A stretch of DNA of 32,486 bases from Escherichia phage IMM-001, in the sequence record MF630922.1. One strand, given 5' to 3'. Both the position numbers and the translations under genes were made by a program. Shown piece by piece: positions 1,225 to 32,431 of the stretch. Below the pieces are notes generated by a model. It ran no database searches. It had not been told where the DNA came from and worked only from the letters and a program-made list of their open reading frames with translations. Positions within the stretch are counted from its first letter, which is position 1, and every line of letters starts with the position of its first letter.

Positions 1225-1269
1225 AATAGCACTTTTTGCCTAACGCTATAACGCCATGGATGGCATAAT
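1225..1269 (+). promoter_or_regulatory. Conserved IR promoter-like cassette copy 1 (AATAGCAC-ttt-TTGCCTAA, 22-nt spacer, CATAAT)
   Basis: Member of 9-copy motif family; followed by conserved leader caccacatcaacagcgagatgg. Confidence 0.55.
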
Positions 1270-1306
1270 CACCACATCAACAGCGAGATGGAGTACAAAG
1301 ATAAAA

Positions 1307-1543
1307 ATGGCACACCAAATTGAAGTTATGAGTGAAATTAATGACCTATTACTTACATTGGTTAAGATTATTGACAGACCAGTAGTGAGTTACTTAGTTG
1401 GTTTTGAAGAGATATTTATCGAGTTTTACAAGCAACCAAATAGCCCTTGCTTTGGTGTAGTTAGTGAGACTTACAGATTCAAAAGTTGCAGCGAACTAAG
1501 AGATTGCGTCAACAGTTTAACCAGTAGCACCACTGATTGCTAA
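1307..1543 (+). CDS. hypothetical small protein (78 aa); start moved to internal ATG downstream of the promoter-like cassette
   Basis: ORF-track start 1256 lies inside the -10-like element; the 5' extension is conserved at nucleotide, not protein, level. Confidence 0.4.
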   Translation: MAHQIEVMSEINDLLLTLVKIIDRPVVSYLVGFEEIFIEFYKQPNSPCFGVVSETYRFKSCSELRDCVNSLTSSTTDC

Positions 1544-1599
1544 ACCTGCCGCAAGGCCATTTGATATAGTGGCCTTATTGAAGCAAAGCAAAAGAGGGT

Positions 1600-1833
1600 G
1601 TGATGGAAAGGAACAAATACGAAAGAGAGATTATCGGCATTAATGGCGAGAGGGCTATTGTTGATGTGTATCGCACGCTATCAGCATTCAGTGTTACAGA
1701 CCCAGCATGTCAGCATGCTATCAAAAAGCTGCTCTGCATGGGTTTGCGTGGCCACAAGGATGTCATTACTGACCTTGATGACGCGATAGACTCGCTAAAT
1801 AAGATGAAAACTTACCTGGAGCAAACGAAATGA
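1600..1833 (+). CDS. hypothetical protein (77 aa)
   Basis: ORF with 4-nt ATGA overlap to next gene. Confidence 0.45.
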   Translation: MMERNKYEREIIGINGERAIVDVYRTLSAFSVTDPACQHAIKKLLCMGLRGHKDVITDLDDAIDSLNKMKTYLEQTK

Positions 1834-2132
1834 TTACAATTAACCTGTCAGACAAGCAAGCCGCAACTCTTAAGCAGCTACTATCAAGCCAGCCAATGCG
1901 GTGCTCAGCGGTCGAGTTCTCAGGGATGGTCAAAGATGTTTGCACTCAAATCAGCAACCAGCAGTTCGATGTGTCAGACTTTGAGTCATCAAGGCAGTAT
2001 GAGTCACTGTCAATCGAGAGTGTTGGCCTCACCCAAAAAACCGAGCTATATAAAAGTATAGGGTGGATTATAAAGGAAAGCTCTCAGAATGAAGGATACC
2101 TAACTAACTGGGATGATGAGACTAATAAATGA
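1830..2132 (+). CDS. hypothetical protein (100 aa)
   Basis: ORF in translationally coupled chain. Confidence 0.45.
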   Translation: MITINLSDKQAATLKQLLSSQPMRCSAVEFSGMVKDVCTQISNQQFDVSDFESSRQYESLSIESVGLTQKTELYKSIGWIIKESSQNEGYLTNWDDETNK

Positions 2133-2275
2133 TTTACATTCACACTTATTACACAGGTAAGTTTAATAGCGTTAAGCATGTTCGGGTTTATGAGGACATT
2201 GATGAGGTTTTGGGCCAGTGTCGTGTTCTGGGAGGTGACATTAAGATTTGCAGGTTGATTCAAGTGATTTTATAA
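2129..2275 (+). CDS. hypothetical small protein (48 aa, below ORF-track threshold)
   Basis: ATG overlaps upstream stop; own stop overlaps motif copy 2. Confidence 0.3.
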   Translation: MIYIHTYYTGKFNSVKHVRVYEDIDEVLGQCRVLGGDIKICRLIQVIL

Positions 2276-2319
2276 ATAGCACGAATTGCTAAACAATCGC
2301 CGGAGCAATCCGGCATGAT
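2275..2319 (+). promoter_or_regulatory. Conserved IR promoter-like cassette copy 2 (AATAGCAC-gaa-TTGCTAAA, 22 nt, CATGAT)
   Basis: Motif family; leader aacacatcgacaacgagatgg follows. Confidence 0.55.
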
Positions 2320-2350
2320 TAACACATCGACAACGAGATGGAGTAGAGAG

Positions 2351-2560
2351 ATGAAGGTCAAGATTATTGAAGTTGGCATTGCTGTAGATGACGAGCTAAG
2401 CCTTGCGGATTGCGGTTTCCAGGTTGGTGATGTGGTGGAGGTTTCCGGTCAGTACAAAGATGGAAACTTATCAGTTAAGGCGATTCGTGAAACAAATTTC
2501 GTATCAATCGGAAATGAAGTCAGCATCCAGGAAGGCGAATACGAGGTGATTGAGGAATGA
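2351..2560 (+). CDS. hypothetical small protein (69 aa)
   Basis: Internal ATG with GGAG upstream; ORF-track start 2315 lies in the promoter-like element. Confidence 0.4.
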   Translation: MKVKIIEVGIAVDDELSLADCGFQVGDVVEVSGQYKDGNLSVKAIRETNFVSIGNEVSIQEGEYEVIEE

Positions 2561-2736
2561 AATTCAAGCAAAGTAACCCTAAGCTGCAAGCCAACCACTT
2601 CGATGGCTACTCAACATTCATTATTGCACAGGCTTGCGGAATGCGTGATGAACCTCAGGTTCACACCATCCACTTAACCGAGGAGCAGGCTAGAGAACTC
2701 GCTTATGAAATTCTTGAGCAATTGAATAAGATTTAA
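2557..2736 (+). CDS. hypothetical small protein (59 aa, below threshold)
   Basis: ATGA overlap with upstream stop; ends just before the RBS of the HNH gene. Confidence 0.35.
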   Translation: MKFKQSNPKLQANHFDGYSTFIIAQACGMRDEPQVHTIHLTEEQARELAYEILEQLNKI

Positions 2737-2745
2737 GGTGATAGA

Positions 2746-3111
2746 ATGAAATTAACAAAGTTACAAAGAGATGAACTAAAGTTTAAGCTAGGTGGATTCT
2801 GCGCATACTGCGGCTGCGAACTCGGTGATAAGTGGCATGCTGACCATATGAAGCCAGTAATCAGGTATGATGGTAAAATGGTGCACGATGAGCTTGATAA
2901 TATTTCGAACCTTGTCCCGGCGTGCCACGCTTGCAATCTGCATAAGCACTGCAATAGTGTGGAGGATTACCGGAGAATTATTGACGATGGTAGGCGGGAG
3001 TTTTTGGCATCCGGCAAGGGTAAGGCGCTCGTTCGCATGGGGCTGGTTGATATGAAGATGGATGATATTGTGTTCTGGTTCGAGAAGTTTGAGAAATTGA
3101 ATAAGATTTAA
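2746..3111 (+). CDS. HNH endonuclease (121 aa)
   Basis: Cys pairs CAYCGC and CHACNLHKHC with HADH...N...H spacing typical of HNH nucleases; RBS aaggtg. Confidence 0.8.
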   Translation: MKLTKLQRDELKFKLGGFCAYCGCELGDKWHADHMKPVIRYDGKMVHDELDNISNLVPACHACNLHKHCNSVEDYRRIIDDGRREFLASGKGKALVRMGLVDMKMDDIVFWFEKFEKLNKI

Positions 3112-3588
3112 CGCGTATAGAACGCGTTCTAACTAACAATAATTTAAATGAGGTGATTGCATAATCAAGGTCGTATACATCGGTGAGGATGATTATATGG
3201 CGCTTTTAAAGCACGGCGACGTCTTCTGTTCATGGACTGTTAGTAGTGATGGTAACTATTACATTATTCAAAATAAGAATGGAGAGGAAATTTACCTCTC
3301 GAAAGATGAGGTAGCACTTTACTAATGGATAACTACGAATCACCAAGCCAGTGGGCTAAGCGCATGATGGATGAGGCTAAGACTGGCGAAGAGTCAATGC
3401 AATACTTCGAGCTAATGAATCTATGGAAAGAGCGGGAGGATAAGAAAAATGCTTAACACGTGCTTTTTCCGAACTATCAGGAGTTTGTTGAGGATTTAAT
3501 TTACTTTCACGATAAATACGGCGACACGTTTGAGTGCGACGGTGATAACAACGAAGTTTTAGCAACTTTTGATAGAGGGATCGATGTA

Positions 3589-3633
3589 AATAGCACAAAT
3601 TGCTAAACAAGAGTGGCAAGGATGTCATATAAT
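3589..3633 (+). promoter_or_regulatory. Conserved IR promoter-like cassette copy 3 (AATAGCAC-aaa-TTGCTAAA, 22 nt, TATAAT)
   Basis: Motif family; leader ttcatcaaacaacgagatgg follows. Confidence 0.6.
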
Positions 3634-3662
3634 TAATTCATCAAACAACGAGATGGTAGAAA

Positions 3663-3902
3663 ATGTTCGGATTAAACGAGGCGCATTTCAATGCGGTCAA
3701 GAAGCAGGCTAAAAAGCTTAACGATGATTACTCTAAGTTATCACCAAAAGAGCGAAAGAATGACAAGCTAGTTGCTGCGCTAATATCAGGTTTATGGGAG
3801 CCAGTATTTACTATTATCAGTCGAGACCGCTTCGTTTGGGTGGCTGGATATTTGAAGGGTCGCGTTGGCCATGATGAGAATGGGAATAGCCTTTATGAAT
3901 AA
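3663..3902 (+). CDS. hypothetical protein (79 aa)
   Basis: ORF downstream of cassette copy 3. Confidence 0.45.
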   Translation: MFGLNEAHFNAVKKQAKKLNDDYSKLSPKERKNDKLVAALISGLWEPVFTIISRDRFVWVAGYLKGRVGHDENGNSLYE

Positions 3903-4134
3903 GATTAAGTCATTAATGTTTAAGGTTGGAATCCTACATAAGCATAAATATAGATTATTTCGACGCATAAATTGGTATGAGGACGAATATCAGGATGGGT
4001 GCAGGACAAAACTAATCTGTACAGTTTGCGGGAAGATTTTTAACTCAAAGGTTGACCTAATGGTTTGCAAAAGCACGCTGGATTTCATTAGATATGAAAA
4101 AGAGATTGCATCACTTAGGGGTTTTAATGGATAA
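3895..4134 (+). CDS. hypothetical Cys-rich small protein (79 aa), possible zinc ribbon
   Basis: Internal ATG 3895 overlapping upstream stop; CRTKLICTVCGKIF...C cysteine pattern. Confidence 0.4.
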   Translation: MNKIKSLMFKVGILHKHKYRLFRRINWYEDEYQDGCRTKLICTVCGKIFNSKVDLMVCKSTLDFIRYEKEIASLRGFNG

Positions 4135-4426
4135 GTTTATTGAATGCGTAGTATACACCTTATGCATCACTCTCGTTTTTTGCTCATTGATGATTAGCTT
4201 TGGTGTGCTGTTTAGAATCATTTAGGACAAAATCCTTGCATCACTGACCGGAAAGTATTAGTATGTACCTAGTAGCACAAAAGGCCACTAAGTGGCAACG
4301 GCGCACGGAGCGAAACACAAAGTCCATAGCTCACTAAGCAGCGTACATGGCAAAATCGGTCGAGAAACTCGACGCTGGATGCGTAACCAGCAATCTTTCA
4401 ATAGCGAAATCGCTACTTAAAGATTT

Positions 4427-4502
4427 GTTCTGCTGGCGTAACAGGATAACGCAAAGACCTCCTAAGTCTTAGTTACTGGTTCGAGTCCAGTGCGGAACAC
4501 CA
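4427..4502 (+). tRNA. tRNA-Arg, anticodon CCU (reads AGG), 76 nt with encoded CCA
   Basis: Hand-folded cloverleaf: acceptor gttctgc/gcggaac with one G-U, D stem gcgt/acgc, anticodon stem aagac/gtctt, loop ctCCTaa, variable agtt, T stem actgg/ccagt, T loop ttcgagt, discriminator A. Confidence 0.85.
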
Positions 4503-4518
4503 ATTAAGGAGATTCATT

Positions 4519-4701
4519 ATGTGGGACGTTAAGCTTTCAATCCGCTTAATGGGTCGAAGCTGTAAGAATTGCCAGCAAGAATTTATCGCGTCGGTTGCCG
4601 CTGAGTCCTCAGAGGAAGCGGTAGCGAAAGTTAAGGTAATGTCGGGAGCCGACCCTGATTACCACAAATTCCTAGTAGCTTACGTTCGTGAGCGAAAGTA
4701 A
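4519..4701 (+). CDS. hypothetical small protein (60 aa)
   Basis: Strong RBS aaggag 7 nt upstream, immediately after the tRNA. Confidence 0.5.
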   Translation: MWDVKLSIRLMGRSCKNCQQEFIASVAAESSEEAVAKVKVMSGADPDYHKFLVAYVRERK

Positions 4702-4754
4702 AAGAAGTTCTACTCTCTGGTTGTTTCATCTCTCTCGTTGTTGTTCGACACTTC

Positions 4755-4778
4755 GCTCTCTTCTTGAGGGCTTTTTTA
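4755..4778 (+). terminator. Rho-independent terminator
   Basis: Stem gctctc/gagggc (one G-U), loop ttctt, then T6. Confidence 0.6.
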
Positions 4779-4787
4779 GTGTTTGTG

Positions 4788-4816: not shown

Positions 4817-4857
4817 TAACTCATCTGGGCGACCCACTAACCAGAAGGAGATTTAAA

Positions 4858-5061: not shown

Positions 5062-5071
5062 GTTGCTATCA

Positions 5072-5683: not shown

Positions 5684-7252
5684 ATGTCTAATTTAGTTTG
5701 GGAGGAAATGACGTCAGCCGAAAAGATGGCGGTTAAGGCAATATCAACTCATAGCTTTGAGGGTTTTCTGAGGGTGTGGTTCCAACTGACACAGGGCGAG
5801 CGGTACATCCCAAACTGGCATCATAAATACCTTTGCAGGATAATTGACGAGATTATCGCTGGTGAGCGTAAGGACACCATCATTAACGTCGCTCCCGGTA
5901 GTGGAAAGACAGAAATTGCCTCAATCCACTTTCCAGCATACTCGATGGTTAAGCTGAAGAAGGTCAGGAACCTTAACATATCGTTTGCCGACTCACTGGT
6001 TAAGCGTAACTCCAAGCGAGTGCGTGACTTAATTAAGTCGGTTGAGTTCCAGGAGTTATTCCCATGCAAGTTTGGCACATGCAAGGATGATGAGCTACAG
6101 GTTCTGGATGAGTCTGGCAAAGTACGGTTTGAGTCAATCTCCAAGGCTGCTGGAGGCCAAATCACCGGCGCGAGGGGCGGCTATATAACCGATTCATATA
6201 GTGGCGCGGTTCTGTTAGATGATTTTGACAAACCAGCCGATATGCTTTCTGCCGTGTTCCGCGCAAACAATCACGTGATGCTAAAGAACACCATCCGCTC
6301 TCGTAGGGCTAGCTCAGTTAAAGGTAAAGCAACTCCGATTATCTCTATTCAGCAGCGACTTCACGTCAACGATAGCACGTGGTTCATGATGAATGGAGGT
6401 ATGGGTATCAGCTTCGATTTGATTAAGATACCAGCGCTAGTAACTGAAGATTACGTGGATACACTTCCTGACTGGATTAAGCAGCAATTCATTGATGACG
6501 TTCTATCAAGCGAATATATTGAGCGTGACGGCGTGAAATATTACAGCTACTTCCCAGAAAAGGAGTCGGTTAACGACCTGGTAGCAATGTGGGATTCAGA
6601 CAGCTATACATTCCTTAGCCAGTATCAGCAGGAGCCTGTAGCGCTTGGTGGTAATCTGATTAATGTAGAATGGCTCCAGCGCATTAGCGACACTCTGCGA
6701 CCGCCAGCTAAGTATGATTACAGATTCATGACTCTTGATACCGCCATGACAACAAAGTCATACAGCGACTTTAGTGTACTGCAACTTTGGGGTTATAAGG
6801 ATGGGAAGATTTACCTGCTTGACCAGCGACGAGGTAAGTTTGAAGCGCCGGAGCTAGAGGCTGAGTTATTGGATTTCGAGAAGATAGCAAGGGCATCCAA
6901 TCAGACAGATGGTATCCTTCGTAAAATCATCATCGAGAAGAAAGCCTCTGGCATCGGGCTGATTCAATCGGTAGGTAGGGTTATGCGGACACCAATCGAG
7001 CCATATGTGCCAGATAACGACAAGCTAACTCGCGTAATGAGTGCACTGCCTCAGATTAAGGCTGGTAACGTTATCCTGCCTGAGTCTGCAACATGGCTAA
7101 ACGGATTACTAACGGAGATTGCGGCATTCACGGCAGATGACTCGCATGTTCATGATGACCAGATTGACTGTTTAACTATGGCTGTCAACCTTGTTCTAAA
7201 CATTGCAGAGGATCCTAAATCAAGGATGATGAGATTAGCAGGAATCAAATAG
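5684..7252 (+). CDS. terL: terminase large subunit (522 aa)
   Basis: Walker A-like VAPGSGKTE near N-terminus, size and position before portal. Confidence 0.88.
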   Translation: MSNLVWEEMTSAEKMAVKAISTHSFEGFLRVWFQLTQGERYIPNWHHKYLCRIIDEIIAGERKDTIINVAPGSGKTEIASIHFPAYSMVKLKKVRNLNISFADSLVKRNSKRVRDLIKSVEFQELFPCKFGTCKDDELQVLDESGKVRFESISKAAGGQITGARGGYITDSYSGAVLLDDFDKPADMLSAVFRANNHVMLKNTIRSRRASSVKGKATPIISIQQRLHVNDSTWFMMNGGMGISFDLIKIPALVTEDYVDTLPDWIKQQFIDDVLSSEYIERDGVKYYSYFPEKESVNDLVAMWDSDSYTFLSQYQQEPVALGGNLINVEWLQRISDTLRPPAKYDYRFMTLDTAMTTKSYSDFSVLQLWGYKDGKIYLLDQRRGKFEAPELEAELLDFEKIARASNQTDGILRKIIIEKKASGIGLIQSVGRVMRTPIEPYVPDNDKLTRVMSALPQIKAGNVILPESATWLNGLLTEIAAFTADDSHVHDDQIDCLTMAVNLVLNIAEDPKSRMMRLAGIK

Positions 7253-7293
7253 CACTTTTTGCTAAAGACACTCCGCCATTGGTGGCGTATAGT
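7248..7293 (+). promoter_or_regulatory. Conserved IR promoter-like cassette copy 4 (AATAGCAC-ttt-TTGCTAAA, 23 nt, TATAGT), overlapping the terL stop
   Basis: Motif family. Confidence 0.55.
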
Positions 7294-7323
7294 TACCTCA
7301 CGCAAACAAGAGGAGAAAGTACA

Positions 7324-7696
7324 AGTGGCAACCAAATTAAAAGCTGTATATCTTGGCAACGAAGATGGAGAGTATCGTGGTTTCACCGTAGGAAATGAAT
7401 ATGAGGTTGGTAATTACATAGCTGAAAATGACTGCTTCGGTTCTTTTGATGATGATGGTTGTTATCTTTACATCAATAACGGAGCATTCCACAAGTTTCG
7501 AATCCACGATGAGAATGGCTACCTCAATTTAAAAACACAAGATGAATTTATCAGCAAAGAAAAGCAGTTAAAATACTACATCAATGGCGACGCTGTCACA
7601 AAATGTAAGTTCAATGACGTGCTGCTATGCGTAATGGGATTTCAGTCTGATGGGATTGACGCATCATCAATCAAGTTCGAAGTAAAATTCGAGTAA
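7324..7696 (+). CDS. hypothetical protein (124 aa from GTG 7324), moron-like between terminase and portal
   Basis: RBS gaggag before GTG; ORF-track ATG 7259 lies inside the promoter-like motif; flanked by cassette copy 4 and terminator. Confidence 0.45.
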
Positions 7697-7718
7697 CCAT
7701 AAAAGCTATGTTAAACTA

Positions 7719-7742
7719 AGCCCCTAACGGGGCTTTTTTATT
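7719..7742 (+). terminator. Rho-independent terminator
   Basis: agcccc-taac-ggggct then T7. Confidence 0.7.
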
Positions 7743-7753
7743 GGAGCAAGAAA

Positions 7754-9025
7754 ATGGTAAAAGCAGATTCATATGCCACGCAGTTCCTCGGTGGGGCTAG
7801 TGATGGCAGCGAGATTTACGGTCACTTTGGCAACACCTACCTAACACCTCCTTTCGCTGATTCACTTTACGTATCCAACTCAATTGTTCGTCGCATTGTC
7901 GACACCATACCGGAGACTGCAATCGCAGCAGGTTTCCATATCGACGGCATTGATGACGAAGGTGAGTTCTGGTCCAGGTGGGATTACCTGAAGGTTAACG
8001 AGTCAATATCTGACGCGTGGTCATGGGCGAGATTATTTGGCGGCTCGGCAATTGTGGCTATCGTTAAGGATAATCGTGCGTTAACTAGTCCAGTACGTGA
8101 AGGCGCAGAACTTGAATCACTTCGAGTATACGAGCGAAGTCAGGTAAAGGTGCAAACGAAGGAGGAAAACCCTCGCAACGTGCGATTTGGTAAGCCGCTA
8201 ACGTACCGCATCACGCCTGAAGGCAGCACCATGTTTTATGACGTTCACTATTCCAGGGTTCACATCATGGATGGTGAGAAAATCCCCAGTTCATTGCGTC
8301 GCGGTAATGATGGGTGGGGTGCTAGCGTACTGACTCCTGACTTGCTGGAATCAATCAAGGATTATCAGACGTGCGAGAAGCTGGCAACTCAGTTATTGCG
8401 ACGTAAGCAACAGGCGGTTTGGAAGGCTAAAGGTCTGGCTGAATTGTGTGACGACGCTGAAGGTTTTGGCGCGGCCAGGTTGAGACTGGCTCAGGTTGAT
8501 GATAACTCTGGAGTTGGGCGTGCTATTGGTATCGATGCTGAGGCTGAAGAATACAGCGTTCTGAATTCGGATATTGGTGGTATTGATGGATTCCTCGATA
8601 AGAAGTTCGACAGGATTGTTGCTCTGAGCGGTATTCATGAAATCATACTAAAGGGCCGTAACGTTGGTGGTCTATCCTCCAGCCAAAACACAGCTCTGGA
8701 GACATTTCATAAGCTAATCGACCGCAAGCGCAATGAGGAGTTACTACCTGTCCTTGGGTTCTTAATCCCATTCATCACAACGGAGCAAGAATGGTCGGTT
8801 GAGTTTAATCCGCTAGCTCAGGAATCGAAGAAAGACCGCGCTGAAATACTGAAGAATAACGTTGACTCAATCTCAGCCCTTATCACTAACGGCGTAATGG
8901 ATACAGATGAAGCACGAGATACCTTGCGTGCATTAGCACCTGAGGTTAAGATTGGTGAAGGTTCAATTGTTACCGAGCAATCCGCTCAGGAAGATTTACC
9001 AAAAGAGGAGGTTGTAATTGAATAA
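7754..9025 (+). CDS. portal protein (423 aa)
   Basis: Size and position after terminase; 8-nt overlap with next gene. Confidence 0.7.
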   Translation: MVKADSYATQFLGGASDGSEIYGHFGNTYLTPPFADSLYVSNSIVRRIVDTIPETAIAAGFHIDGIDDEGEFWSRWDYLKVNESISDAWSWARLFGGSAIVAIVKDNRALTSPVREGAELESLRVYERSQVKVQTKEENPRNVRFGKPLTYRITPEGSTMFYDVHYSRVHIMDGEKIPSSLRRGNDGWGASVLTPDLLESIKDYQTCEKLATQLLRRKQQAVWKAKGLAELCDDAEGFGAARLRLAQVDDNSGVGRAIGIDAEAEEYSVLNSDIGGIDGFLDKKFDRIVALSGIHEIILKGRNVGGLSSSQNTALETFHKLIDRKRNEELLPVLGFLIPFITTEQEWSVEFNPLAQESKKDRAEILKNNVDSISALITNGVMDTDEARDTLRALAPEVKIGEGSIVTEQSAQEDLPKEEVVIE

Positions 9026-11490: not shown

Positions 11491-12432
11491 ATGGCCATTA
11501 AATTTGATGCAGAACAAGCAAAAATCACCGCTCACCTTGAGCAAATGGGTGTAGATAAGGCTGATGCTGCTGGTATCTGGACCGTTAAGCAGTTGACCGC
11601 GAATCTGGCGCGCGCTTACGAAGCAGAGTATTCGGAAAACTCCGTAGTTAATATCTTCCCTGTAACTAACGAAATCCCAAGTCACGCAAAGTATTTTGAG
11701 TATCCTGAGTTTGACGGAGCAGCAATTGCACAGATTATCGCTGAATACTCTGATGACCTGCCGCTGGTTGATGCGTTCATGACCGAGAAACAAGGTAAAG
11801 TGTTCCGCTTCGGTAACGCATTCCTGATCTCCATCGACGAAATCAAAGCAGGTGCAGCAACTGGTCAGTCACTGTCATCTCGCAAACAGGCTCTGGCATT
11901 CGAAGCGCACGATAACCTGCTTGATAAACTTGTATGGTCTGGCTCTGCACCGCACGGCATTCCTAGCGTATTCAATGCGCCGAACGTTAACCAGGTTGTT
12001 GCTGGTACTTGGAACTCCGCGGCTGCTGCTATGACTGACATTACCGCTCTTATCGATGCTATCGAAACAGCGACCAATGGCGCTCACACCGCGACTGATA
12101 TCCTGCTTCCAGCTTCCGCTCGCCGCCTGATGCAAGAATTGGTGCCGAATACCTCTATCAGCTACGCGCAGTTGTTTGCAACCAATAACTCCGGCATCAC
12201 TTTGCGCTATCTGCAATTCCTGGACAACTACGACGGCGCAAACGGCAAAGCTGCACTGGCATTTGAAAAAAATCCGTTAAATCTTAGTATTGAGATTCCA
12301 GAAGTTACTAACGTACTTCCGGGCCAACCGAAGGATTTACATTTCAAATACCCGGTGACTTCAAAGGCTACAGGCTTGATTTTATATAGGCCGCTAACTG
12401 TTTCCGTACTGAAAGGCATTACCTACGCCTAA
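11491..12432 (+). CDS. major capsid protein (313 aa)
   Basis: Size, position, own promoter and terminator; not motif-verified. Confidence 0.6.
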   Translation: MAIKFDAEQAKITAHLEQMGVDKADAAGIWTVKQLTANLARAYEAEYSENSVVNIFPVTNEIPSHAKYFEYPEFDGAAIAQIIAEYSDDLPLVDAFMTEKQGKVFRFGNAFLISIDEIKAGAATGQSLSSRKQALAFEAHDNLLDKLVWSGSAPHGIPSVFNAPNVNQVVAGTWNSAAAAMTDITALIDAIETATNGAHTATDILLPASARRLMQELVPNTSISYAQLFATNNSGITLRYLQFLDNYDGANGKAALAFEKNPLNLSIEIPEVTNVLPGQPKDLHFKYPVTSKATGLILYRPLTVSVLKGITYA

Positions 12433-12452
12433 TGGCACTAAATGACAAAACA

Positions 12453-12481
12453 ATACCACCGAAAGGTGGTATTTTTGTTTT
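12453..12481 (+). terminator. Rho-independent terminator
   Basis: ataccacc-gaaa-ggtggtat then T-rich run. Confidence 0.75.
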
Positions 12482-15564: not shown

Positions 15565-15571
15565 AAATTAA

Positions 15572-15593
15572 CCCTCTTCGGAGGGTTTTTTAT
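15572..15593 (+). terminator. Rho-independent terminator
   Basis: ccctc-ttcg-gaggg then T6. Confidence 0.75.
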
Positions 15594-15594
15594 T

Positions 15595-15639
15595 GATAGC
15601 ACTTTTTGTTAAAGGCTATTGTGTTGATTGCTGTATAGT
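15595..15639 (+). promoter_or_regulatory. Conserved IR promoter-like cassette copy 5, variant (GATAGCAC-ttt-TTGTTAAA, 22 nt, TATAGT)
   Basis: Motif family; leader tcattcatcgaaacg. Confidence 0.5.
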
Positions 15640-15672
15640 TCATTCATCGAAACGAAATGATAGATTAATGAA

Positions 15673-15924
15673 ATGAACAACGTAAAAAATATCATCAAAC
15701 TTGCTGCTGCTCTTGGTGCTTTCTACCTGGCAATTCAGATTGTCAACCCAACTAGTGGCGCAACAGCAAACTCTGATGCAATAAAGTATGAAACTAAATT
15801 CAATAGCGCATATTCATACTGTGAAAAAGTTGCTGGAGACAAGGTTAATCAGATCATGACTCATGGTCGCGAAGTGTGCACAGAAGTTGCTCACAAAATT
15901 GCAAAAGAAGACGAATCAAAGTAA
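15673..15924 (+). CDS. small secreted or membrane protein (83 aa)
   Basis: N-terminal hydrophobic stretch LAAALGAFYLAIQIV after a Lys-containing n-region; two Cys in mature part. Confidence 0.45.
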   Translation: MNNVKNIIKLAAALGAFYLAIQIVNPTSGATANSDAIKYETKFNSAYSYCEKVAGDKVNQIMTHGREVCTEVAHKIAKEDESK

Positions 15925-19630: not shown

Positions 19631-19981
19631 ATGGCATTGCAAACATTCAATTGGTGCTTAAACGTACTCAATGGCGGCTCTTCATTTACCAATGCCAACA
19701 ATATTAGGGTTGTATCATTTGGTAATGGTTACCAACAGCGTGGCACTGGAGGATACAGGACGAACAAGAGGACGTATACTGTTAGCTACGTTGGCCGTGA
19801 GTGGGAGGCAGTAATGAACTTCTGCCTTGATCACATCGTAAAACCTTTCGCATGGACTACGCCACAGGGTGAGTTAAAGATGTTTGTTATTCAGCAGGAT
19901 AGCATTAGCGTCTCGCCGAGCACAAAAGAAGTTCAGACTGTTAGTATGCAATTTACTGAAGTTTTCACTTCAATGAGTTAA
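19631..19981 (+). CDS. minor tail protein, lambda M-like (116 aa)
   Basis: Position and size after tape measure. Confidence 0.55.
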   Translation: MALQTFNWCLNVLNGGSSFTNANNIRVVSFGNGYQQRGTGGYRTNKRTYTVSYVGREWEAVMNFCLDHIVKPFAWTTPQGELKMFVIQQDSISVSPSTKEVQTVSMQFTEVFTSMS

Positions 19982-19985
19982 ACTA

Positions 19986-20009
19986 AGGCCCATAAAGGGC
20001 CTTTTTTTA
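19986..20009 (+). terminator. Rho-independent terminator
   Basis: aggccc-ataaa-gggcct then T7. Confidence 0.7.
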
Positions 20010-20020
20010 TTGGAGAGAAT

Positions 20021-20776
20021 ATGGCAAGTGTAAAGTTTGAAAACCAGCTTCAATCACTATTTCCTGGTGAGGTAGTCACACTTATTGAGGTTGATGGCAG
20101 CAAGTTTGGCGCAAGGGTTTACAGGTTTCATGGAGAGGACATCTCATACACGCCAGAGGAAATCATGCAAGCCCAAACATCTGGTCAGCCACTACCATCC
20201 AAGACAATCACGTTCCGTGGCGAAGAGTATGGAGCCAGGCCTTTCGGCATTAGCGGCATCAACCTGACTTCTGACGGCAAAGCAAACAAGCTCACGCTAA
20301 TTCTATCAAACGTTGACCAGGCTGTTTCCGCACTCATACGTCAGTATAATGGTATGGTTCAGGCCAAGGTGACAATCTGGGTTACTATCAGGGATAATAT
20401 CAATGAGGACGGCAGCATTGCAGATGGCGATTATCGTAAGATGGTTTACTTTATTGAGCGCCCTAAGCAGGTTGACTACAAAACTGCCTCTTTTGAGTTA
20501 TCTAGCCCAATTGATATGGATGGTATTTATATTCCAGCCAGGCTAGTCCAGTCAGTATGCTATTGGGCTTCCCGTGGCTGGTACCGCAGTGGGAATGGTT
20601 GTGCTTATGCTGGTAATCGATATTTTGATAAAGACAATAATCCTGTTGATGACCCTGGCCTAGATTTCTGCGCCGGAACTGTTGACGCCTGTAAGTTAAG
20701 GTTTGGCGAGAATAACCAATTAGATTTTGGCGGTTGTGCCTCAGCAAGTTTGCAAGCTAAGAATAATCAGAACTAA
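20021..20776 (+). CDS. minor tail protein, lambda L-like (251 aa)
   Basis: C-terminal cysteine cluster as in L-family tail-tip proteins. Confidence 0.65.
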   Translation: MASVKFENQLQSLFPGEVVTLIEVDGSKFGARVYRFHGEDISYTPEEIMQAQTSGQPLPSKTITFRGEEYGARPFGISGINLTSDGKANKLTLILSNVDQAVSALIRQYNGMVQAKVTIWVTIRDNINEDGSIADGDYRKMVYFIERPKQVDYKTASFELSSPIDMDGIYIPARLVQSVCYWASRGWYRSGNGCAYAGNRYFDKDNNPVDDPGLDFCAGTVDACKLRFGENNQLDFGGCASASLQAKNNQN

Positions 20777-22112: not shown

Positions 22113-22162
22113 TTTGATGTACAATGGCACCAATAGTCAAAAACAAAACAGGATAATGTGAT

Positions 22163-26787: not shown

Positions 26788-26828
26788 TTACGTATTCCTT
26801 ATGAGGTTCGTTTCTTTTCGATGGAGTA

Positions 26829-26870
26829 ACTATATCTCATTCTTGAGATTTGTCTTTAGCTATTCGTGCT
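26829..26870 (-). promoter_or_regulatory. Conserved IR promoter-like cassette copy 8, variant (AGCACGAATAGCTAAAG, 22 nt, TATAGT), overlapping the MTase stop
   Basis: Motif family on minus strand upstream of the lipoprotein gene. Confidence 0.5.
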
Positions 26871-27578
26871 GTTTATTCTATTTTTTGCGACATTAAAATA
26901 CTCAGTATCTAGCTCTATACCTATAAATGACCTGTTTGTGTTTACGCATGCTACGCCAGTTGTTCCGCTACCCATGCAGTTATCAAGAACTAAGTCACCC
27001 TCGTCAGTGTATGTTTTTATTAGGTACTCCATCAAGGAAACCGGCTTTTGCGTTGGGTGTAGTGATGATTTCTGCTTGTCGCTAGCCATCTTTATCACAT
27101 CCCTTGGGTATCTCATTGTTGAATCATAAGATAGTGATTCGAAATTCTGATCTCCATAGTTTGTTCCATTGTCGTTCCTCTTTGTTGCTGTTTTTCTTTT
27201 GTGACCCTCTGTCATTTGCGGGTTGTATTTGTAAGGTTTTTTGTAGAAAACAAGTATGTTTTCATGAGCCTTCATCGGAGCTCTCTTGGCATTAAGGTGT
27301 CCGGTTGCATGTGTTTTTTCCCATATCCACTCATGCTTCAACATTTCAAGATTGGAGCACCCGAGTACTTTATCGAATGGTGTTTGCGCCGTAAGTACAA
27401 TTGCACCCTTGCACACCCTCCTGTATTGAGTCCATAGCAAGTCAAGGTCTATAACTGAATCCCACTTGTTTCTGGTTGTTCCGTATGGTAAGTCGCACAA
27501 AATCATGTCAATTGAATTGTCTGGGATTTCTTTCATAAGCTCAAGGCAGTCGCCATTCATTAATTTAATCATTTCCAT
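26856..27578 (-). CDS. orphan DNA methyltransferase, beta-class, DPPY motif (240 aa; may start at second ATG 27572)
   Basis: Motif IV ILCDLPYG near N-terminus and motif I VLDNCMGSGTTG near C-terminus; no adjacent restriction enzyme gene. Confidence 0.8.
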   Translation of the reverse strand: MEMIKLMNGDCLELMKEIPDNSIDMILCDLPYGTTRNKWDSVIDLDLLWTQYRRVCKGAIVLTAQTPFDKVLGCSNLEMLKHEWIWEKTHATGHLNAKRAPMKAHENILVFYKKPYKYNPQMTEGHKRKTATKRNDNGTNYGDQNFESLSYDSTMRYPRDVIKMASDKQKSSLHPTQKPVSLMEYLIKTYTDEGDLVLDNCMGSGTTGVACVNTNRSFIGIELDTEYFNVAKNRINSTNS

Positions 27579-27603
27579 CTCTCATTGCGTTTTTGTTGTG
27601 ATG

Positions 27604-27646
27604 ATTATACATAACCAAGCAAGGGTGTCTTTAGCTATTCGTGCTA
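27604..27646 (-). promoter_or_regulatory. Conserved IR promoter-like cassette copy 9, variant (TAGCACGAATAGCTAAAG, 22 nt, TATAAT)
   Basis: Motif family on minus strand upstream of the MTase gene. Confidence 0.55.
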
Positions 27647-27745
27647 CTGGTTACGCGTAACCGATGTAAATCGATGTATACCATATGCATCCGCTGGAAA
27701 TCGTATACGCATTGTTACGCCTAGTTACGCCATAGTTACATTAAA

Positions 27746-27806
27746 ATATCTATATATATCAACCTTTTACTCTTATTATTATTATTATATATATTACTGT
27801 GTATAT
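27746..27806 (+). repeat. AT-rich repeat, copy B, containing (TTA)5 microsatellite at 27773..27787
   Basis: Shares core with 229..297; lies in the 535-bp ORF-free region between divergent blocks. Confidence 0.8.
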
Positions 27807-28113
27807 CATGTAACCACTGTTCTGGAGTGTTCCGGCTATAATTTTTATATCATGTGATTTTATACAGTATTTCGCGGCACATATACCAATGCACCACCCG
27901 CTAAAATCGGTATACACGGTATACGCATTATTTACATTGAGCTATAGCGGCCCAGCCGGAGCAGTTAAGCGTAACTAATGCCAATGTCTACACGTAATTA
28001 CAAAATTATACGCGTATACTTGATTAATTAATCGGGGATACCAATTAGACGTGGTGACAAGCGTTCTGCATAATTATCACATCGAAAGCAAACAACCATA
28101 GAGAGATAGAGAA

Positions 28114-28311: not shown

Positions 28312-29283
28312 ATGACATTTACCGTATACACCAACGACGAACTAACAAACGAATCCTATCACGAAGAGCAGAGCCACATCTCTGGCTCTTCACTGGCTGA
28401 GATTCTCGCCACTTCACCAGCAAAATGGAAATTCAAGCAGCGCGATAACTCAAGCGCAGCACTTAAGTTTGGCACTCTAAGTCACTGCATGATGCTTGAG
28501 CGTGAGGCGTTCGATTCAACCTACATGCGAGCCACTGACTTTGATGAAGTTGAGGGGTTAATCACAAGCCAAACCGCGTTATCGGCAGCACTTAAGAAAG
28601 TTGGAGTTTCTGGTACGTCAGGAAAAGGCTATAACGAGCTAGTAGAGATGATGTACAAGTGCGGTGAGGATTGGCCTGTTAAGTGGCTAATTGAACAGCA
28701 GGAGAGCGCTGAGGCGTTAATTAGTGGCAAGGAGTTGGTTAGTGCGAAAGATTACGATAAGGTAATCGCAATGCGCGAGGTTCTGACCAATATCCCAGCT
28801 TACGATGCAGTTATTAATTCACCAACAGCGCAGAAAGAGCTATCAATCTTTGGTGAGATTCTTGGATGCGGCGTTAAGGTTAGACTTGACCATGTGGATG
28901 TTGTTGATGGCGCGGTTTACATTACTGACTACAAAACCACAGCAGACGCAAGTCCTCGAGGATTTGGTAAGTCGGCTTATGACCATGGATACCTTTGCAA
29001 GATGGCACTCCAGCGCGATTTGTTTGTTAAGGCGTTTAGCGAGAAGCGTAAGGTTGTAGTTCGTCTTCTGGCGCAGGAGAAGACAGAGCCTTATTTGCCA
29101 ATGTGCTACACGCTCACAGATGAGCAGCTTCACATTGGTCGCCTTCAATATATGGAAGCACTTGCCACGTACAAGCAGTGTAAGGAACTTGATGTTTGGC
29201 CTGGATACAGTAATGGGATTACAGAGCAAGATTTAATGATTCCTGAATGGGTAGCAAAACAATACGGAGAGATATTAAAATGA
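28312..29283 (+). CDS. PD-(D/E)xK family nuclease, RecB-like domain (323 aa); likely recombination exonuclease
   Basis: VRLDHVDVVD and YITDYKTT resemble nuclease motifs II and III (hhD / D-Y-K); sits upstream of Erf. Confidence 0.6.
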   Translation: MTFTVYTNDELTNESYHEEQSHISGSSLAEILATSPAKWKFKQRDNSSAALKFGTLSHCMMLEREAFDSTYMRATDFDEVEGLITSQTALSAALKKVGVSGTSGKGYNELVEMMYKCGEDWPVKWLIEQQESAEALISGKELVSAKDYDKVIAMREVLTNIPAYDAVINSPTAQKELSIFGEILGCGVKVRLDHVDVVDGAVYITDYKTTADASPRGFGKSAYDHGYLCKMALQRDLFVKAFSEKRKVVVRLLAQEKTEPYLPMCYTLTDEQLHIGRLQYMEALATYKQCKELDVWPGYSNGITEQDLMIPEWVAKQYGEILK

Positions 29284-29744
29284 ATAAAGATTGCTGGCAG
29301 ACACCATTAGAATTATTTAATCAACTAAATGATAAGTACAATTTCCAGGTTGACGCGTGCGCAAGTCAAGAGAATGCTTTGTGTGAGCATTTTTGGACCG
29401 AAGATGATGACTGTTTGCAGCAGGATTGGGGTGATGAAAATGATTTTGTTTGGTGCAACCCACCATACAGCAACCCATTGCCATTTGTCGAAAAGTGCCA
29501 GGAGTACGGTTACGCTGTTATGCTTTTAAATCAGGACACATCAACGAAATGGGCTAAGATAGTTTTTGAAAAATCCTCAAAGGTAATACTGTTATCAGAT
29601 AGGGTTAGGTTTATAAACCCATCGACGCTCGAGATTGGGAAGTCAAACCCAAAATGCCAGATGATTGTAGTGTTCGATAATAGTGTGGAGCATGGGCCTG
29701 TCATAAGGTGGTGCTCAATAAAAGATATTCACAAAAACATCTAA
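29280..29744 (+). CDS. Dam-like phage N6-adenine DNA methyltransferase (154 aa)
   Basis: N-terminal CWQTP and catalytic NPPY motifs; ATG 29280 overlaps upstream stop. Confidence 0.7.
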   Translation: MNKDCWQTPLELFNQLNDKYNFQVDACASQENALCEHFWTEDDDCLQQDWGDENDFVWCNPPYSNPLPFVEKCQEYGYAVMLLNQDTSTKWAKIVFEKSSKVILLSDRVRFINPSTLEIGKSNPKCQMIVVFDNSVEHGPVIRWCSIKDIHKNI

Positions 29745-29788
29745 ATAGCACTAATTGCTAAAGATAAAATTAACAGGTGTGGTATGAT
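29744..29788 (+). promoter_or_regulatory. Conserved IR promoter-like cassette copy 6 (AATAGCAC-taa-TTGCTAAA, 22 nt, TATGAT), overlapping the Dam-like stop
   Basis: Motif family; leader accacatcaacaacgagatgg. Confidence 0.55.
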
Positions 29789-29819
29789 TACCACATCAAC
29801 AACGAGATGGTTTAAGCAA

Positions 29820-29963
29820 ATGAAAGTATTTAAAAGTAAAATATGTAGCTACATTAAAATGGCCATTAATCGAAACGATGATATTATAAAAACAATAGAT
29901 ATAAAACCTGGCGACGAGGTTTTTGTCATAATCGAAAAGTCTATAGCGTTAGAACTTGCATAA
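29820..29963 (+). CDS. hypothetical small protein (47 aa, below threshold)
   Basis: ATG downstream of cassette copy 6; the in-frame upstream ATG 29784 lies in the promoter-like element. Confidence 0.3.
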   Translation: MKVFKSKICSYIKMAINRNDDIIKTIDIKPGDEVFVIIEKSIALELA

Positions 29964-30000
29964 TACATCTTAAAAAATTCAGAAAAACTAGAGGATTGAT

Positions 30001-30651
30001 ATGAACATTTCAGAATCATGCAAATCAATTTTAAACGCACTGCACACTGCTAAATCGCTATTTGCGAAGGCTGAGAAGTCAAAGCAAAACTCGCACTTAA
30101 AGAACAAGTACGCCACTTTAGAAGACGTTTTAGCAGCAGTTGAGCCAGGATTGGATGAGTGCGGTTTGGTAATGTTCCAAAGCGTAATAGATGATGAATC
30201 AACGAACCGAATAAAGGTTGAAACTAAGCTGTTTCATGCAGAATCTGGAGAATGGGTTAGCTTCTTAATGATTGTCCCAATCAGTAAGCAAGATGCTCAA
30301 GGTTACGGCTCTGCTCTTACATATGCTCGACGCTATGGCATTACAGCAGCCTTAGGGCTTAGCCAGGCTGATGATGATGGTAATCTTGCAGCTAAGGGTG
30401 TTAAAGACTTCAAGCGAGAACTTGAGAAGTGCAATACGCTCGATGAGCTTCGTAATGTCTGGAAGGAGGCTAAACAGTCACTTGATGCGGCAGGATGGAA
30501 GGTTTTCGAACCACACATTATCGAGCGCAAGGCAGAGATTCAGGCAAATGAAATGAATGGCTTCAACCCAGCCACGCCTAAGAAAGTTGCAGAAAAAAGT
30601 AGTGATAAAGAAAAGATTGAAGTAGAATCACAACAAATCGATACATTCTAA
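30001..30651 (+). CDS. erf: Erf-family single-strand annealing protein (216 aa)
   Basis: GSALTYARRYGITAALG hallmark and NSHLKNKYATLEDVL N-terminal motif; RBS gagga. Confidence 0.75.
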   Translation: MNISESCKSILNALHTAKSLFAKAEKSKQNSHLKNKYATLEDVLAAVEPGLDECGLVMFQSVIDDESTNRIKVETKLFHAESGEWVSFLMIVPISKQDAQGYGSALTYARRYGITAALGLSQADDDGNLAAKGVKDFKRELEKCNTLDELRNVWKEAKQSLDAAGWKVFEPHIIERKAEIQANEMNGFNPATPKKVAEKSSDKEKIEVESQQIDTF

Positions 30652-30693
30652 ATTAAACGGGGCTTCGGCCCCAGCAAACAGAGAGATAAAAAC

Positions 30694-31131
30694 ATGCACG
30701 TAATTACTGGTCAGATTCGCCGCGCTCCATTCACTAAAGAAGGTCAGAATGCTAATGGTACCTGGAAAATGTTTGCGGTTGATTTGAGTGAGCGATACAA
30801 AGATAAAGATGGTCAGACTCAGTATAGTAACTATCGCGCAGTCTTCTTCGCGAAAGAGTCAATTTTAGATTGGTATAATGAAGCATTTCAAGAAGGTAAA
30901 ATTGTTAGCGTTAGCGCTGAAAGTTTATCTGTAGATGTTCGAGATAAAGATGGCAAGACTTACGTAACAATCAATATGAATAATCCTCGACTTGAGTTTA
31001 GTCAGCGTGGAGATTCGCAACCACAACAAAATCAGAGACAGCAGCAGCAACAACAGCAGCAGAATAATCAGCAGAAGAGGCAACCACAACCACAACAACA
31101 GCAGCAGTTTGACGACTCCATTCCATTCTGA
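30694..31131 (+). CDS. ssb: single-stranded DNA-binding protein-like (145 aa) with poly-Gln linker and acidic tip
   Basis: C-terminal FDDSIPF resembles the SSB DDDIPF tail; preceded by a Gln-rich linker; N-terminal domain not canonical. Confidence 0.55.
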   Translation: MHVITGQIRRAPFTKEGQNANGTWKMFAVDLSERYKDKDGQTQYSNYRAVFFAKESILDWYNEAFQEGKIVSVSAESLSVDVRDKDGKTYVTINMNNPRLEFSQRGDSQPQQNQRQQQQQQQQNNQQKRQPQPQQQQQFDDSIPF

Positions 31132-31140
31132 TAAAAGATA

Positions 31141-31163
31141 AGGCCCCTTTCGGGGCCTTTTTA
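31141..31163. terminator. Bidirectional rho-independent terminator
   Basis: aggcccc-tttc-ggggcct then T5; convergent genes on both sides. Confidence 0.7.
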
Positions 31164-31691
31164 TGGCATGTTTACTCGAATTGAAACGAACGAGTCAGAA
31201 GGTATATCTATAGGGTCTCCGTTACTGAAGCCGTCAATTTTATTTCTCGCGAAAGACGGAGATGAATCGTGAGTGCGATGATAAGTTTTAACAACTATTG
31301 AACCATCAGCTTCAACCTCGTAATCTAGCCATATTCTAGGCTGCTTATTCAAGTCTACAGGTACCTCAAATCCACCGTTAACACCGCCCCAAGAAGTGTC
31401 AGAATTTAGGCCAAGCACACCTGATACCTTATAAACACCAGTAGAAACCCTCTCCACTGAAGCTCCTTCTGATTCCTCGTTTGTTTCAAAACTCCCATCT
31501 CGGAATACCTTAATTATAGGTGAGGCCACTTTGACGAAACCGCTAGGGTCCACTGTTGTGTTTAATCCGTGTAAAAGTTCCATTACCGCAAGTCCGCCAT
31601 TATAAGTTGAGTTAGCTATATAACAACGCCTTGCCCCATAAGATATGGCAAGCTGACCCCACTCGCGTGGAGTTGGGCCAGGCATATCCAT
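31161..31691 (-). CDS. tail-fibre-like protein, C-terminal part (176 aa from first ATG); frame stays open upstream to 31970 with no start codon
   Basis: Upstream in-frame translation ...NLQNKLQARSNLGLGTSATINHGDDAGQ... looks fibre-like; no ATG/GTG/TTG in 93 upstream codons. Confidence 0.4.
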   Translation of the reverse strand: MDMPGPTPREWGQLAISYGARRCYIANSTYNGGLAVMELLHGLNTTVDPSGFVKVASPIIKVFRDGSFETNEESEGASVERVSTGVYKVSGVLGLNSDTSWGGVNGGFEVPVDLNKQPRIWLDYEVEADGSIVVKTYHRTHDSSPSFARNKIDGFSNGDPIDIPSDSFVSIRVNMP

Positions 31692-32011
31692 GAATACAAC
31701 AGAATCTTTGTGTAAGTTAAAACCGGAACCGTAAGGCTCATATCCATAAGACCATGTTTTTGTTGTCCTATTCGCTGAAAGAAACCTTGGTCCATAAACT
31801 AGCTGGACCTGCCCTGCATCGTCTCCATGATTAATAGTCGCAGAGGTTCCAAGTCCAAGATTGGACCTTGCTTGTAGCTTGTTTTGTAAGTCATTCAGGT
31901 TTTCTTCTTTTTTTAAAAAACTTGATGGATTTACTGAATTAGCGTAATCTGCCGCTTGCTGCGCTGATGCTCAGGGAGCAATCCTTCTTCAGTTGCTCAA
32001 GCGCTTCGCCT

Positions 32012-32179
32012 TTAATCTTCATTTTTAAACCACCTTTCTTTAAGAACCTGAGCCCAAGACTTTGCATCATCTTCTGTCATGAAGAAACTTAATTTTGGGT
32101 ACTTGTGAAACCCCTTTAACTCAACAACCCAATGACCATTATTGTGACTGTAAGAAACTGTTTTTTCTTTCATTATTAC
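32012..32179 (-). CDS. hypothetical small protein (about 55 aa from internal ATG)
   Basis: ORF-track entry starts at a GTG inside structured leader; internal ATG has gagag upstream. Confidence 0.35.
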   Translation of the reverse strand, partial: VIMKEKTVSYSHNNGHWVVELKGFHKYPKLSFFMTEDDAKSWAQVLKERWFKNED

Positions 32180-32385
32180 CATCTCTCTATATTTGCTTGT
32201 TATCGAAATCTCTTCAACGTACTCGCTACAACTCGGGATTTTAAACCCGGCCCGGCATCCTGGCAAAAGGACCCGCAAGGCGCTTTGGTGGGTTAGGTAA
32301 CGCTTCCTCACATTGCGCGGTGTCGTTCACTCTTTTTGGTTCCTTTCGGAAGTGACTCAGAGTCCAGCACCGTTTCGATGAATAC

Positions 32386-32431
32386 ATAGTAGCAACTTAC
32401 TCATGATTGAGCATTAGCAAAAAGTGCTATT
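32386..32431 (-). promoter_or_regulatory. Conserved IR promoter-like cassette copy 7 (AATAGCAC-ttt-TTGCTAA, 23 nt, TACTAT)
   Basis: Reverse complement of 32414..32431 equals copy 4 motif; leader gtattcatcgaaacg. Confidence 0.5.

Follow-up and report, generated by a model that had tools for sequence, protein, structure and literature searches.

Transcription in the T1 family of phages presents a puzzle: no RNA polymerase or sigma factor gene has been found in the family of phage TLS, only three sigma70-like promoters have been located in the TLS genome, and 18 intergenic 21-nt direct repeats (aaATAGCACnnnTTGnTAAAA), described in the 2024 re-annotation of TLS as lying along the direction of transcription ∼76 nt before start codons and seen also in T1, Rtp and Rogue1, have been left otherwise unexplained, with stoperators, enhancer-binding sites or UP elements suggested as their function (PMC11447400). 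The same question is raised by Escherichia phage IMM-001 (sequence record MF630922.1), whose analysed stretch of 32,486 nucleotides (the window) belongs to Drexlerviridae, subfamily Braunvirinae (T1-like), with 77–86% identity over long stretches to E. coli siphophages and with CY1_Cui-2023 (CY1), TR2/TR3, ES, DTL and JeanPiccard as near relatives. An original prediction for this DNA had described nine copies of the motif (A)ATAGCAC-NNN-TTGCTAA(A), each followed by a −10-like hexamer, and had proposed either a phage-specific promoter class or a regulator-binding site at about −45. What, then, reads this motif? With a probability of roughly 60%, the cassettes are sigma70-dependent class II promoters activated by the host regulators Rob, MarA or SoxS, a reading adopted because the sequence, orientation, spacing and distribution of the box match those of class II marbox promoters; the motif probably marks the main promoters of a T1-like phage, which would borrow host regulators for its own transcription.

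All nine predicted copies are present, within 1–2 nt of the positions first given for them, and a weaker tenth was found at 1527(+). The sequence TAGCACNNNTTGCTA occurs exactly five times in the window against 0.01 expected, the other four copies deviating from it by one or two bases (TGCCT at 1227, TGTTA at 15597, and AGCTA at 26871 and 27646). The −10 hexamers of the nine copies take the form yAnnnT, with A2 and T6 constant (TATAAT, TATAGT, CATAAT, TATGAT, CATGAT and TACTAT); the last of these, at 32430(−), had been missing from the hexamers first listed. Seven copies have 22 nt between TTGCTA and the hexamer, and two (7249 and 32430) have 23 nt, as predicted; counted from the end of the 20-mer box, these gaps correspond to 18 bp and 19 bp, respectively. 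All ten boxes share their orientation with the downstream hexamer and open reading frame (ORF), with AAA lying nearer than GCAC to the −10 on the coding strand, and the start codon is reached 69–85 nt from the box start (119 nt for 32430(−)) after a Shine-Dalgarno-like sequence, bearing out the claim that the copies point toward the next gene on the same strand. A position directly at or over the stop codon of the upstream gene, also claimed, is confined to 1527, 7249, 29745 and 26872; a terminator precedes site 15596, and the remaining boxes away from upstream stops have no long ORF ending beside them.

The phage 20-mer (ATAGCACnnnTTGCTAAAGn) fits, in the forward orientation, the consensus AYNGCACNNWNNRYYAAAYN of the mar/sox/rob box, or marbox (quoted in PMC2064960). 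Against AYNGCACNNWNNRYYAAAY, all nine window sites match with at most two mismatches, seven with at most one and two with none, and the window holds eight matches with at most one mismatch where 0.76 would be expected; two-mismatch matches to the consensus elsewhere in the window are at chance level (17 against 9.45 expected). A MarA consensus has been derived independently by chromatin immunoprecipitation sequencing (ChIP-seq) as 5′-gcactaattgctaaa-3′ (Sharma et al., PMC5684230). Compared with this ChIP-seq consensus (GCACTAATTGCTAAA), site 29745 matches at 15 of 15 positions, 2276 and 3590 at 14 of 15 and four further sites at 13 of 15, and ten matches with at most three mismatches are present in the window against 1.71 expected. 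The mar operon's own marbox, read from the K-12 genome on the reverse strand, is ATGCCACGTTTTGCTAAATC, and TTTTGCTAAA is common to it and the phage boxes. Across 76 sites from six phage genomes, 18 of the 19 positions of the asymmetric marbox consensus hold, Y at position 14 among them, with G4, C5 and A6 invariant and C7 and G13 nearly so.

Spacing in the 76 sites is narrowly distributed, with 18 bp between box and hexamer in 63, 19 bp in eight and 17 bp in five; G is found at −14 in 51 of them, and C-A often stands at the expected start. With transcription assumed to start ∼7 nt past the hexamer, as for all positions given relative to +1, the box is centred at about −40.5 to −41.5, not at the −45 originally proposed, and takes the place of a missing −35 element. 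Class II promoters carry a forward marbox that overlaps the −35 region near −41, with a canonical −10 and no recognisable −35 (PMC10268841, PMC12052159); the micF box is centred at −41.5 (PMC9638938), and cryo-electron microscopy at micF has found sigma region 4 to be kept from the −35 by Rob (PMC9178005). As read from E. coli K-12, micF consists of ACAGCACTGAATGTCAAAAC, 18 bp, TAGAAT, 7 nt and +1, giving a box centre of −41.5, and the corresponding gap is 18 bp to TATCAT at nfo and 18–19 bp at fumC. The cassettes thus share with the class II promoters of micF, fumC and nfo a 20-bp asymmetric forward box with GCAC and (C/T)AAA elements, 18–19 bp to a canonical −10, a centre near −41.5 and the absence of a −35. 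The phage sites differ in their number (9–10 per 32 kb, and ∼16–24 per genome in the three T1-like relatives scanned), in their placement before early, structural and recombination genes of virulent phages alike, and in being near-consensus and almost identical to one another, whereas the bacterial boxes are degenerate; binding of the phage boxes by MarA, SoxS or Rob is a prediction. A chance match to a host consensus of ∼22 bits in combination with the orientation and spacing is judged very unlikely, and box sequence and spacing support a putative regulator-binding site in place of the −35 region, as the original prediction had allowed. Its alternative of a phage-specific class is probably incorrect, the box being an apparent consensus site of host MarA/SoxS/Rob in class II orientation and spacing that is found also in phage lineages with no detectable common regulator gene.

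Direct reading of the element by RNA polymerase, resembling the use of an UP element or a displaced −35 and dispensing with any accessory protein, was proposed in its UP-element form by the TLS authors (PMC11447400). A location at −50 to −31, a T- or A-rich centre, an AAA tail and the similarity of TTGCTA to TTGACA would suit such contacts, and the frequent G at −14 and good −10 hexamers can sustain promoters that lack a −35. UP elements, which lie 5′ of the −35 and are read by the C-terminal domain of the RNA polymerase alpha subunit, have a signature of A/T only, unlike the invariant or nearly invariant G and C positions of the 76 boxes, which place them outside this group. No −35 element is recognisable in the cassettes, the sequence 16–17 bp 5′ of the hexamer offering only a partial AAGACA in some copies, and TTGCTA is ruled out in this role by its spacing of 22–23 bp, a conclusion already drawn in the original prediction. 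Polymerase contacts would in addition leave the fit to the marbox in sequence, orientation and spacing unexplained, and direct recognition is a rather improbable account. Matches to the canonical TTGACA-N16-18-TATAAT are not enriched in the window (36 against 31.3 and 31 against 29.3 expected). Enrichment is seen for hairpins resembling terminators (26 against 12.8 and 22 against 14.6 expected).

The TAGCA/TGCTA repeat might alternatively serve as the operator of a dimeric repressor (a stoperator-like silencer, as considered for TLS; PMC11447400) or fold into a DNA hairpin, cruciform or RNA hairpin. The 5-5-5 inverted repeat ascribed to the motif, with 5-bp arms spaced 10 bp centre to centre, is perfect in five of the nine window copies and is not found intact in the other four. 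A silencing role would accommodate a few boxes in relatives that lack a −10: in T1 (34902(+)), CY1 (10209(+)) and JeanPiccard (28097(+)), a strong box lies between the tail-fibre and primase genes, antisense to them, with no −10 at 18 bp and with a terminator hairpin following it, and is conserved yet not a promoter; the window does not include the corresponding region. Conservation across the 76 sites is nonetheless asymmetric, and the symmetric site implied by the inverted repeat is not borne out: pairs 1/17 and 7/11 are complementary in none of the sites, pairs 6/12 and 2/16 are mismatched in 10–13, and G4 never varies while its partner, position 14, is C in 54 sites and T in 17, so that no change on one side compensates for the other. 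The A-runs on either flank (AA...AAA) lie on one strand and contribute no symmetry beyond the 5-bp arms. The inverted repeat is incidental, given asymmetric conservation and a lack of covariation, and the two-fold symmetry of an operator for a dimeric helix-turn-helix (HTH) protein is absent from the 76 sites. The best box hairpin reaches only −3.1 kcal/mol and disappears from variant copies; an N4-like hairpin, a cruciform and an RNA hairpin were rejected for this weak, unconserved fold, and a hairpin promoter of the type used by the N4 virion RNA polymerase, marked by a stable DNA hairpin and a phage RNA polymerase, has no counterpart in the window, where the largest ORFs encode the tape measure and tail tip proteins. 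The fixed 18-bp gap to the −10 and the strictly shared direction of boxes and genes agree with activation and not silencing, and an operator or hairpin function is highly improbable.

The window element corresponds to the TLS repeat in form (aaATAGCACnnnTTGyTAAAa), in its intergenic position along the direction of transcription and in its T1-like genome, and the two agree further in their ∼76-nt distance from start codons and in central-triplet subgroups (TTT, GAA and AAA); the TLS study, by contrast, left the function open and drew no tie to the marbox or to a fixed 18-bp gap to a −10. A matrix built from the window sites recovered ∼16–24 copies each in CY1, JeanPiccard and T1; both strands carry them, and a hexamer lies 17–19 bp past the box in nearly all. 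In a scan of viral contigs with ATAGCACNNNTTGCTAAA, the full cassette was found in multiple copies genome-wide, in the early and structural regions alike, of the unrelated podoviruses IME_EC2 (Murrayvirus, seven copies) and C130_2 (Hungariovirus, eight to nine copies), with box, spacing and −10 identical to those of the T1-like cassette, and in two copies before early genes of the T4-like phage Lw1 (Lw1/RB16), which was read around these two boxes only; one cassette each was present in a 178-kb and a 61-kb viral contig, and some of the cassettes outside the T1 family carry the T1-type leader CCCATCGAAACGA. A BLAST search with two boxes against 50,697 phage records matched 1082; among the organism names listed, almost all named hosts are enteric, with Klebsiella (503), Escherichia (354), Shigella, Salmonella, Enterobacter, Citrobacter, Cronobacter and Pantoea, and 20 records are labelled Campylobacter (label unconfirmed). 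The broader proposition, that virulent enteric phages have wired most of their transcription units to host MarA/SoxS/Rob (or RamA) through optimal class II marboxes, throughout the T1 family, in two or more podovirus genera unrelated to it and, in some T4-like phages, at single early genes, stands at about even odds on this sequence evidence.

No relative of MarA, SoxS or Rob was found among ORFs of at least 35 aa in six phage genomes (the window, CY1, JeanPiccard, T1, IME_EC2 and C130_2) with a hidden Markov model (HMM) built from K-12 MarA, SoxS and the N-terminal domain of Rob, the best E-value being 0.12, and a phage-encoded MarA-like protein was rejected on this result. Several points nevertheless weigh against activation by the host regulators. 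Position 19 of the box departs from the consensus Y in the 76 sites, and degeneracy is much lower in the phage boxes than in bacterial marboxes, with A3 conserved beyond the consensus; such uniformity could signify a more specific reader, and a matrix derived from the phage sites scores micF and fumC at only ∼6.6 bits, compared with 25–35 bits for the phage sites themselves. Rob, present constitutively and at a high level, is described as mostly sequestered and inactive (PMC9178005), and without stress the levels of MarA and SoxS are low (PMC5684230), yet T1-like phages grow fast in ordinary cultures. T1-like phages moreover encode a conserved HTH ‘transcriptional regulator’ (TLS gp57, T1 ST23), which in TLS has a pI (isoelectric point) of 10.3 and is driven by one of the three canonical sigma70 promoters (PMC11447400), an arrangement that, by analogy, would have the look of an activator cascade. 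Horizontal transfer together with the T1-like replication module could also account for the spread of the cassette to IME_EC2 and C130_2, which share with T1-like phages only helicase, primase, VRR-NUC, ExoVIII, Erf, methylases and endolysin.

An activator encoded by the phage may accordingly be envisaged as the reader, with gp57/ST23, expressed early from a canonical promoter, as the candidate in T1-like phages, a cascade resembling those of Mu Mor/C or T4 MotA, and the likeness to the marbox a matter of coincidence or mimicry. Homologues of gp57/ST23 are encoded between primase and helicase in T1, CY1 and JeanPiccard, with a weak Cro-like HTH (Pfam P22_Cro, E = 1e-5, below the curated cutoff), and the uniformity of the boxes relative to host marboxes is what such a dedicated protein would favour. 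Promoters without a box in the window (before 575 and at 28046–28074) could likewise be immediate-early. The AlphaFold model of ST23 contains a single HTH core (residues 42–100), the rest being of low confidence (mean predicted local distance difference test score, pLDDT, of 51), and this fold would predict a symmetric site, at odds with the asymmetric conservation of the box. In IME_EC2 and C130_2, which carry the same cassette, neither tblastn (E > 1) nor a profile HMM gave a homologue of the regulator, and a search for any other DNA-binding protein common to them and T1-like phages detected none; the T1-family regulator, missing also from the window, was rejected as a universal reader. The two Lw1 copies before early genes and the improbability of a chance fit to the host consensus, orientation and spacing likewise argue against a phage activator, which is considered unlikely. 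A factor common to all carriers would most simply be a host factor, because the carriers lack a detectable common regulator and their hosts are almost all enteric.

Under activation by Rob, MarA or SoxS, a single monomer of the host MarA family would occupy each box, its two HTH units contacting GCAC and CTAAA in adjacent major grooves. The activator would stand in for the contact between sigma region 4 and the −35, touching the C-terminal domain of the RNA polymerase alpha subunit and sigma region 4 and recruiting the host polymerase (sigma70 holoenzyme) to the −10. Transcription would begin at the A of a conserved CAT(C), ∼7 nt past the hexamer, and proceed through a CA-rich leader of 19–35 nt, unusually long (68 nt) only at 32430(−). 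Rob, constitutive and abundant, would be the most plausible activator, with MarA and SoxS contributing under stress and RamA in Klebsiella and Salmonella. Terminators between units would yield short promoter-to-terminator modules, and no polymerase, sigma factor or activator of phage origin would be needed for these units.

A sigma70 −10 combined with a repeated activator site that replaces or overlaps the −35 is known from the middle promoters of T4 (MotA/AsiA), from Mu Mor and C and from lambda CII. The centre of the T4 MotA box (TGCTTtA) falls near −30, with ∼12 bp between box and −10, whereas the phage TTGCTAAA lies 20–22 bp from the −10, and a MotA-box middle promoter was rejected on this difference in position. 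The sites of Mu Mor, C and lambda CII are repeats bound by oligomers, in contrast to the asymmetric phage box, and, unlike in all of these systems, no activator gene common to all carriers of the cassette was found. In the literature searched, in which few subscription journals were covered, no link of marboxes, Rob, MarA or SoxS to phage promoters was found; the repeat and the class II marbox promoters were each already known, and the tie between them is new as far as this literature shows.

On the plus strand, the first cassette (1226–1276) comprises the box ATAGCACTTTTTGCCTAACG at 1226–1245, 18 bp and CATAAT at 1264–1269, with a predicted +1 at ∼1276 and an ORF at 1307–1543 (78 aa) downstream. 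The weaker tenth cassette (1527–1577) has the box GCACCACTGATTGCTAAACC at 1527–1546, which contains the stop codon of the upstream ORF, followed after 18 bp by TATAGT at 1565–1570 and then by the ORF 1600–1833. Two cassettes have boxes with no mismatch to the marbox consensus and 18-bp gaps: that at 2276–2326 (ATAGCACGAATTGCTAAACA; CATGAT at 2314–2319; predicted +1 at ∼2326) precedes the ORF 2351–2560, and that at 3590–3640 (ATAGCACAAATTGCTAAACA; TATAAT at 3628–3633; predicted +1 at ∼3640) precedes the ORF 3663–3902. Ahead of the head genes, at 7249–7300, the box ATAGCACTTTTTGCTAAAGA is separated by 19 bp from TATAGT at 7288–7293, with a predicted +1 at ∼7300 and the virion structural protein ORF 7325–7696 first in line; the TAG within this box terminates the large terminase ORF (5684–7252). 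The cassette at 15596–15646 (ATAGCACTTTTTGTTAAAGG; 18 bp; TATAGT at 15634–15639; predicted +1 at ∼15646), with a terminator at 15570–15587 immediately 5′ of it, leads to the ORF 15673–15924 and the tail assembly and tape-measure genes, and that at 29745–29795 (ATAGCACTAATTGCTAAAGA, which contains GCACTAATTGCTAAA; 18 bp; TATGAT at 29783–29788; predicted +1 at ∼29795) to the ORF 29820–29963, then Erf and SSB.

Three cassettes are on the minus strand. At 26822–26872, the box ACAGCACGAATAGCTAAAGA (26872 to 26853) is followed after 18 bp by TATAGT (26834 to 26829), ahead of the ORF 26787–26542 and the DUF6453 gene 26551–25580; at 27597–27647, the box GTAGCACGAATAGCTAAAGA (27647 to 27628) is followed after 18 bp by TATAAT (27609 to 27604), ahead of the DNA methylase gene 27578–26856; and at 32379–32430, the box ATAGCACTTTTTGCTAATGC (32430 to 32411) is followed after 19 bp by TACTAT (32391 to 32386), with 32311–32012 as its first ORF. 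Two further places in the window resemble a box. At 12432–12480 (+), just after the major capsid gene, the box-like sequence ATGGCACTAAATGACAAAAC has a counterpart in CY1 (32991) that reads ATAGCAC...; the hairpin of the capsid terminator lies inside the 18-bp ‘spacer’, and the terminator T-run, TATTTT, occupies the place of the −10. A weak promoter with a terminator nested inside it would give this arrangement, as would a box in decay; it is at most a weak eleventh site. The sequence ATGGCACCAATAGTCAAAA at 22124(+) was rejected as a promoter, being a remnant of the start of the tail-tip gene, which in JeanPiccard begins at the homologous ATGGCAC.

A promoter-like element at 28046–28113 (+) has a −10 and leader as in the cassettes (CATAAT tatcACATCGAAAGCAAAC...) and no marbox 5′ of them; TAGACG lies 17 bp before the hexamer, and the element, which could be an immediate-early promoter, precedes the ExoVIII operon, the TLS counterpart of one gene of which is driven by P51, one of the three canonical promoters (PMC11447400). 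A 51-nt module of terminator and ribosome-binding site (GTTAAACTAAGCCCC...GGGGCTTTTTTATTGGAG...ATGG) occurs in two copies of 71% identity, at 7710–7760 before the portal gene and at 19977–20027 before a minor tail gene; units at these modules appear to be linked through terminator read-through and not through a box promoter.

The gene content of the window comprises small early genes, a tRNA-Arg, terminase, head and tail genes, a methylase and an ExoVIII/Erf/SSB recombination module. The tRNA, the only hit in an Rfam search of the window, lies amid the small early genes at 4427–4502 (+) and has the anticodon CCT; the equivalent region of JeanPiccard is annotated as a tRNA-Arg reading AGA. A 23-nt direct repeat, TTGAGCAATTGAATAAGATTTAA, at 2714–2736 and 3089–3111 (96% identical) forms the 3′ ends of the ORF 2557–2736 and of the HNH endonuclease ORF 2746–3111, and looks like the footprint of a homing-endonuclease insertion with duplication of the 3′ end of the upstream gene.

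The segment 31165–32486 is without similarity to the closest relatives, CY1 and JeanPiccard, and all that the ORF 31161–31691(−) encodes is the C-terminal domain of a tail fibre of phage type (Pfam Phage_tail_C_2). In relatives, SSB is followed by primase, regulator, helicase and lysis genes, which are not in the window, and a 35-nt repeat joins 26–60 to 32435–32469; the divergence and the missing genes could reflect a rearrangement, a deletion or merely the window edge. An AT-rich segment of ∼85 bp with a (TTA)n run is present in two copies (220–303 and 27737–27812), situated in the two largest non-coding regions (1–574 and 27579–28113), which are rich in GTATAC, TATACGC and GTTACGC motifs unrelated to the marbox motif; these segments and motifs could mark an origin, or serve a phage protein as operators or iterons.

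The interest of the proposed activation by Rob, MarA or SoxS lies in its context, with near-consensus sites of host stress regulators as the putative principal promoters of the virulent T1 family and of unrelated enteric phages. For the transcription puzzle of this family, a class II marbox promoter would supply a concrete mechanism that is testable with standard reagents, and the promoters would offer a compact natural set of near-consensus marboxes for studies of activator discrimination. Phage gene expression would, if the reading is correct, be responsive to bile salts, antibiotics, salicylate and oxidative stress, with relevance to phage therapy combined with antibiotics or conducted in the bile-rich gut. 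Replicating phage DNA, with ∼20 high-affinity boxes per copy, would titrate the regulators and shift the host's intrinsic drug-resistance response, and in E. coli, Klebsiella, Salmonella and related hosts the susceptibility to phage and the burst size would be tied to a classic antibiotic-resistance and stress regulon.

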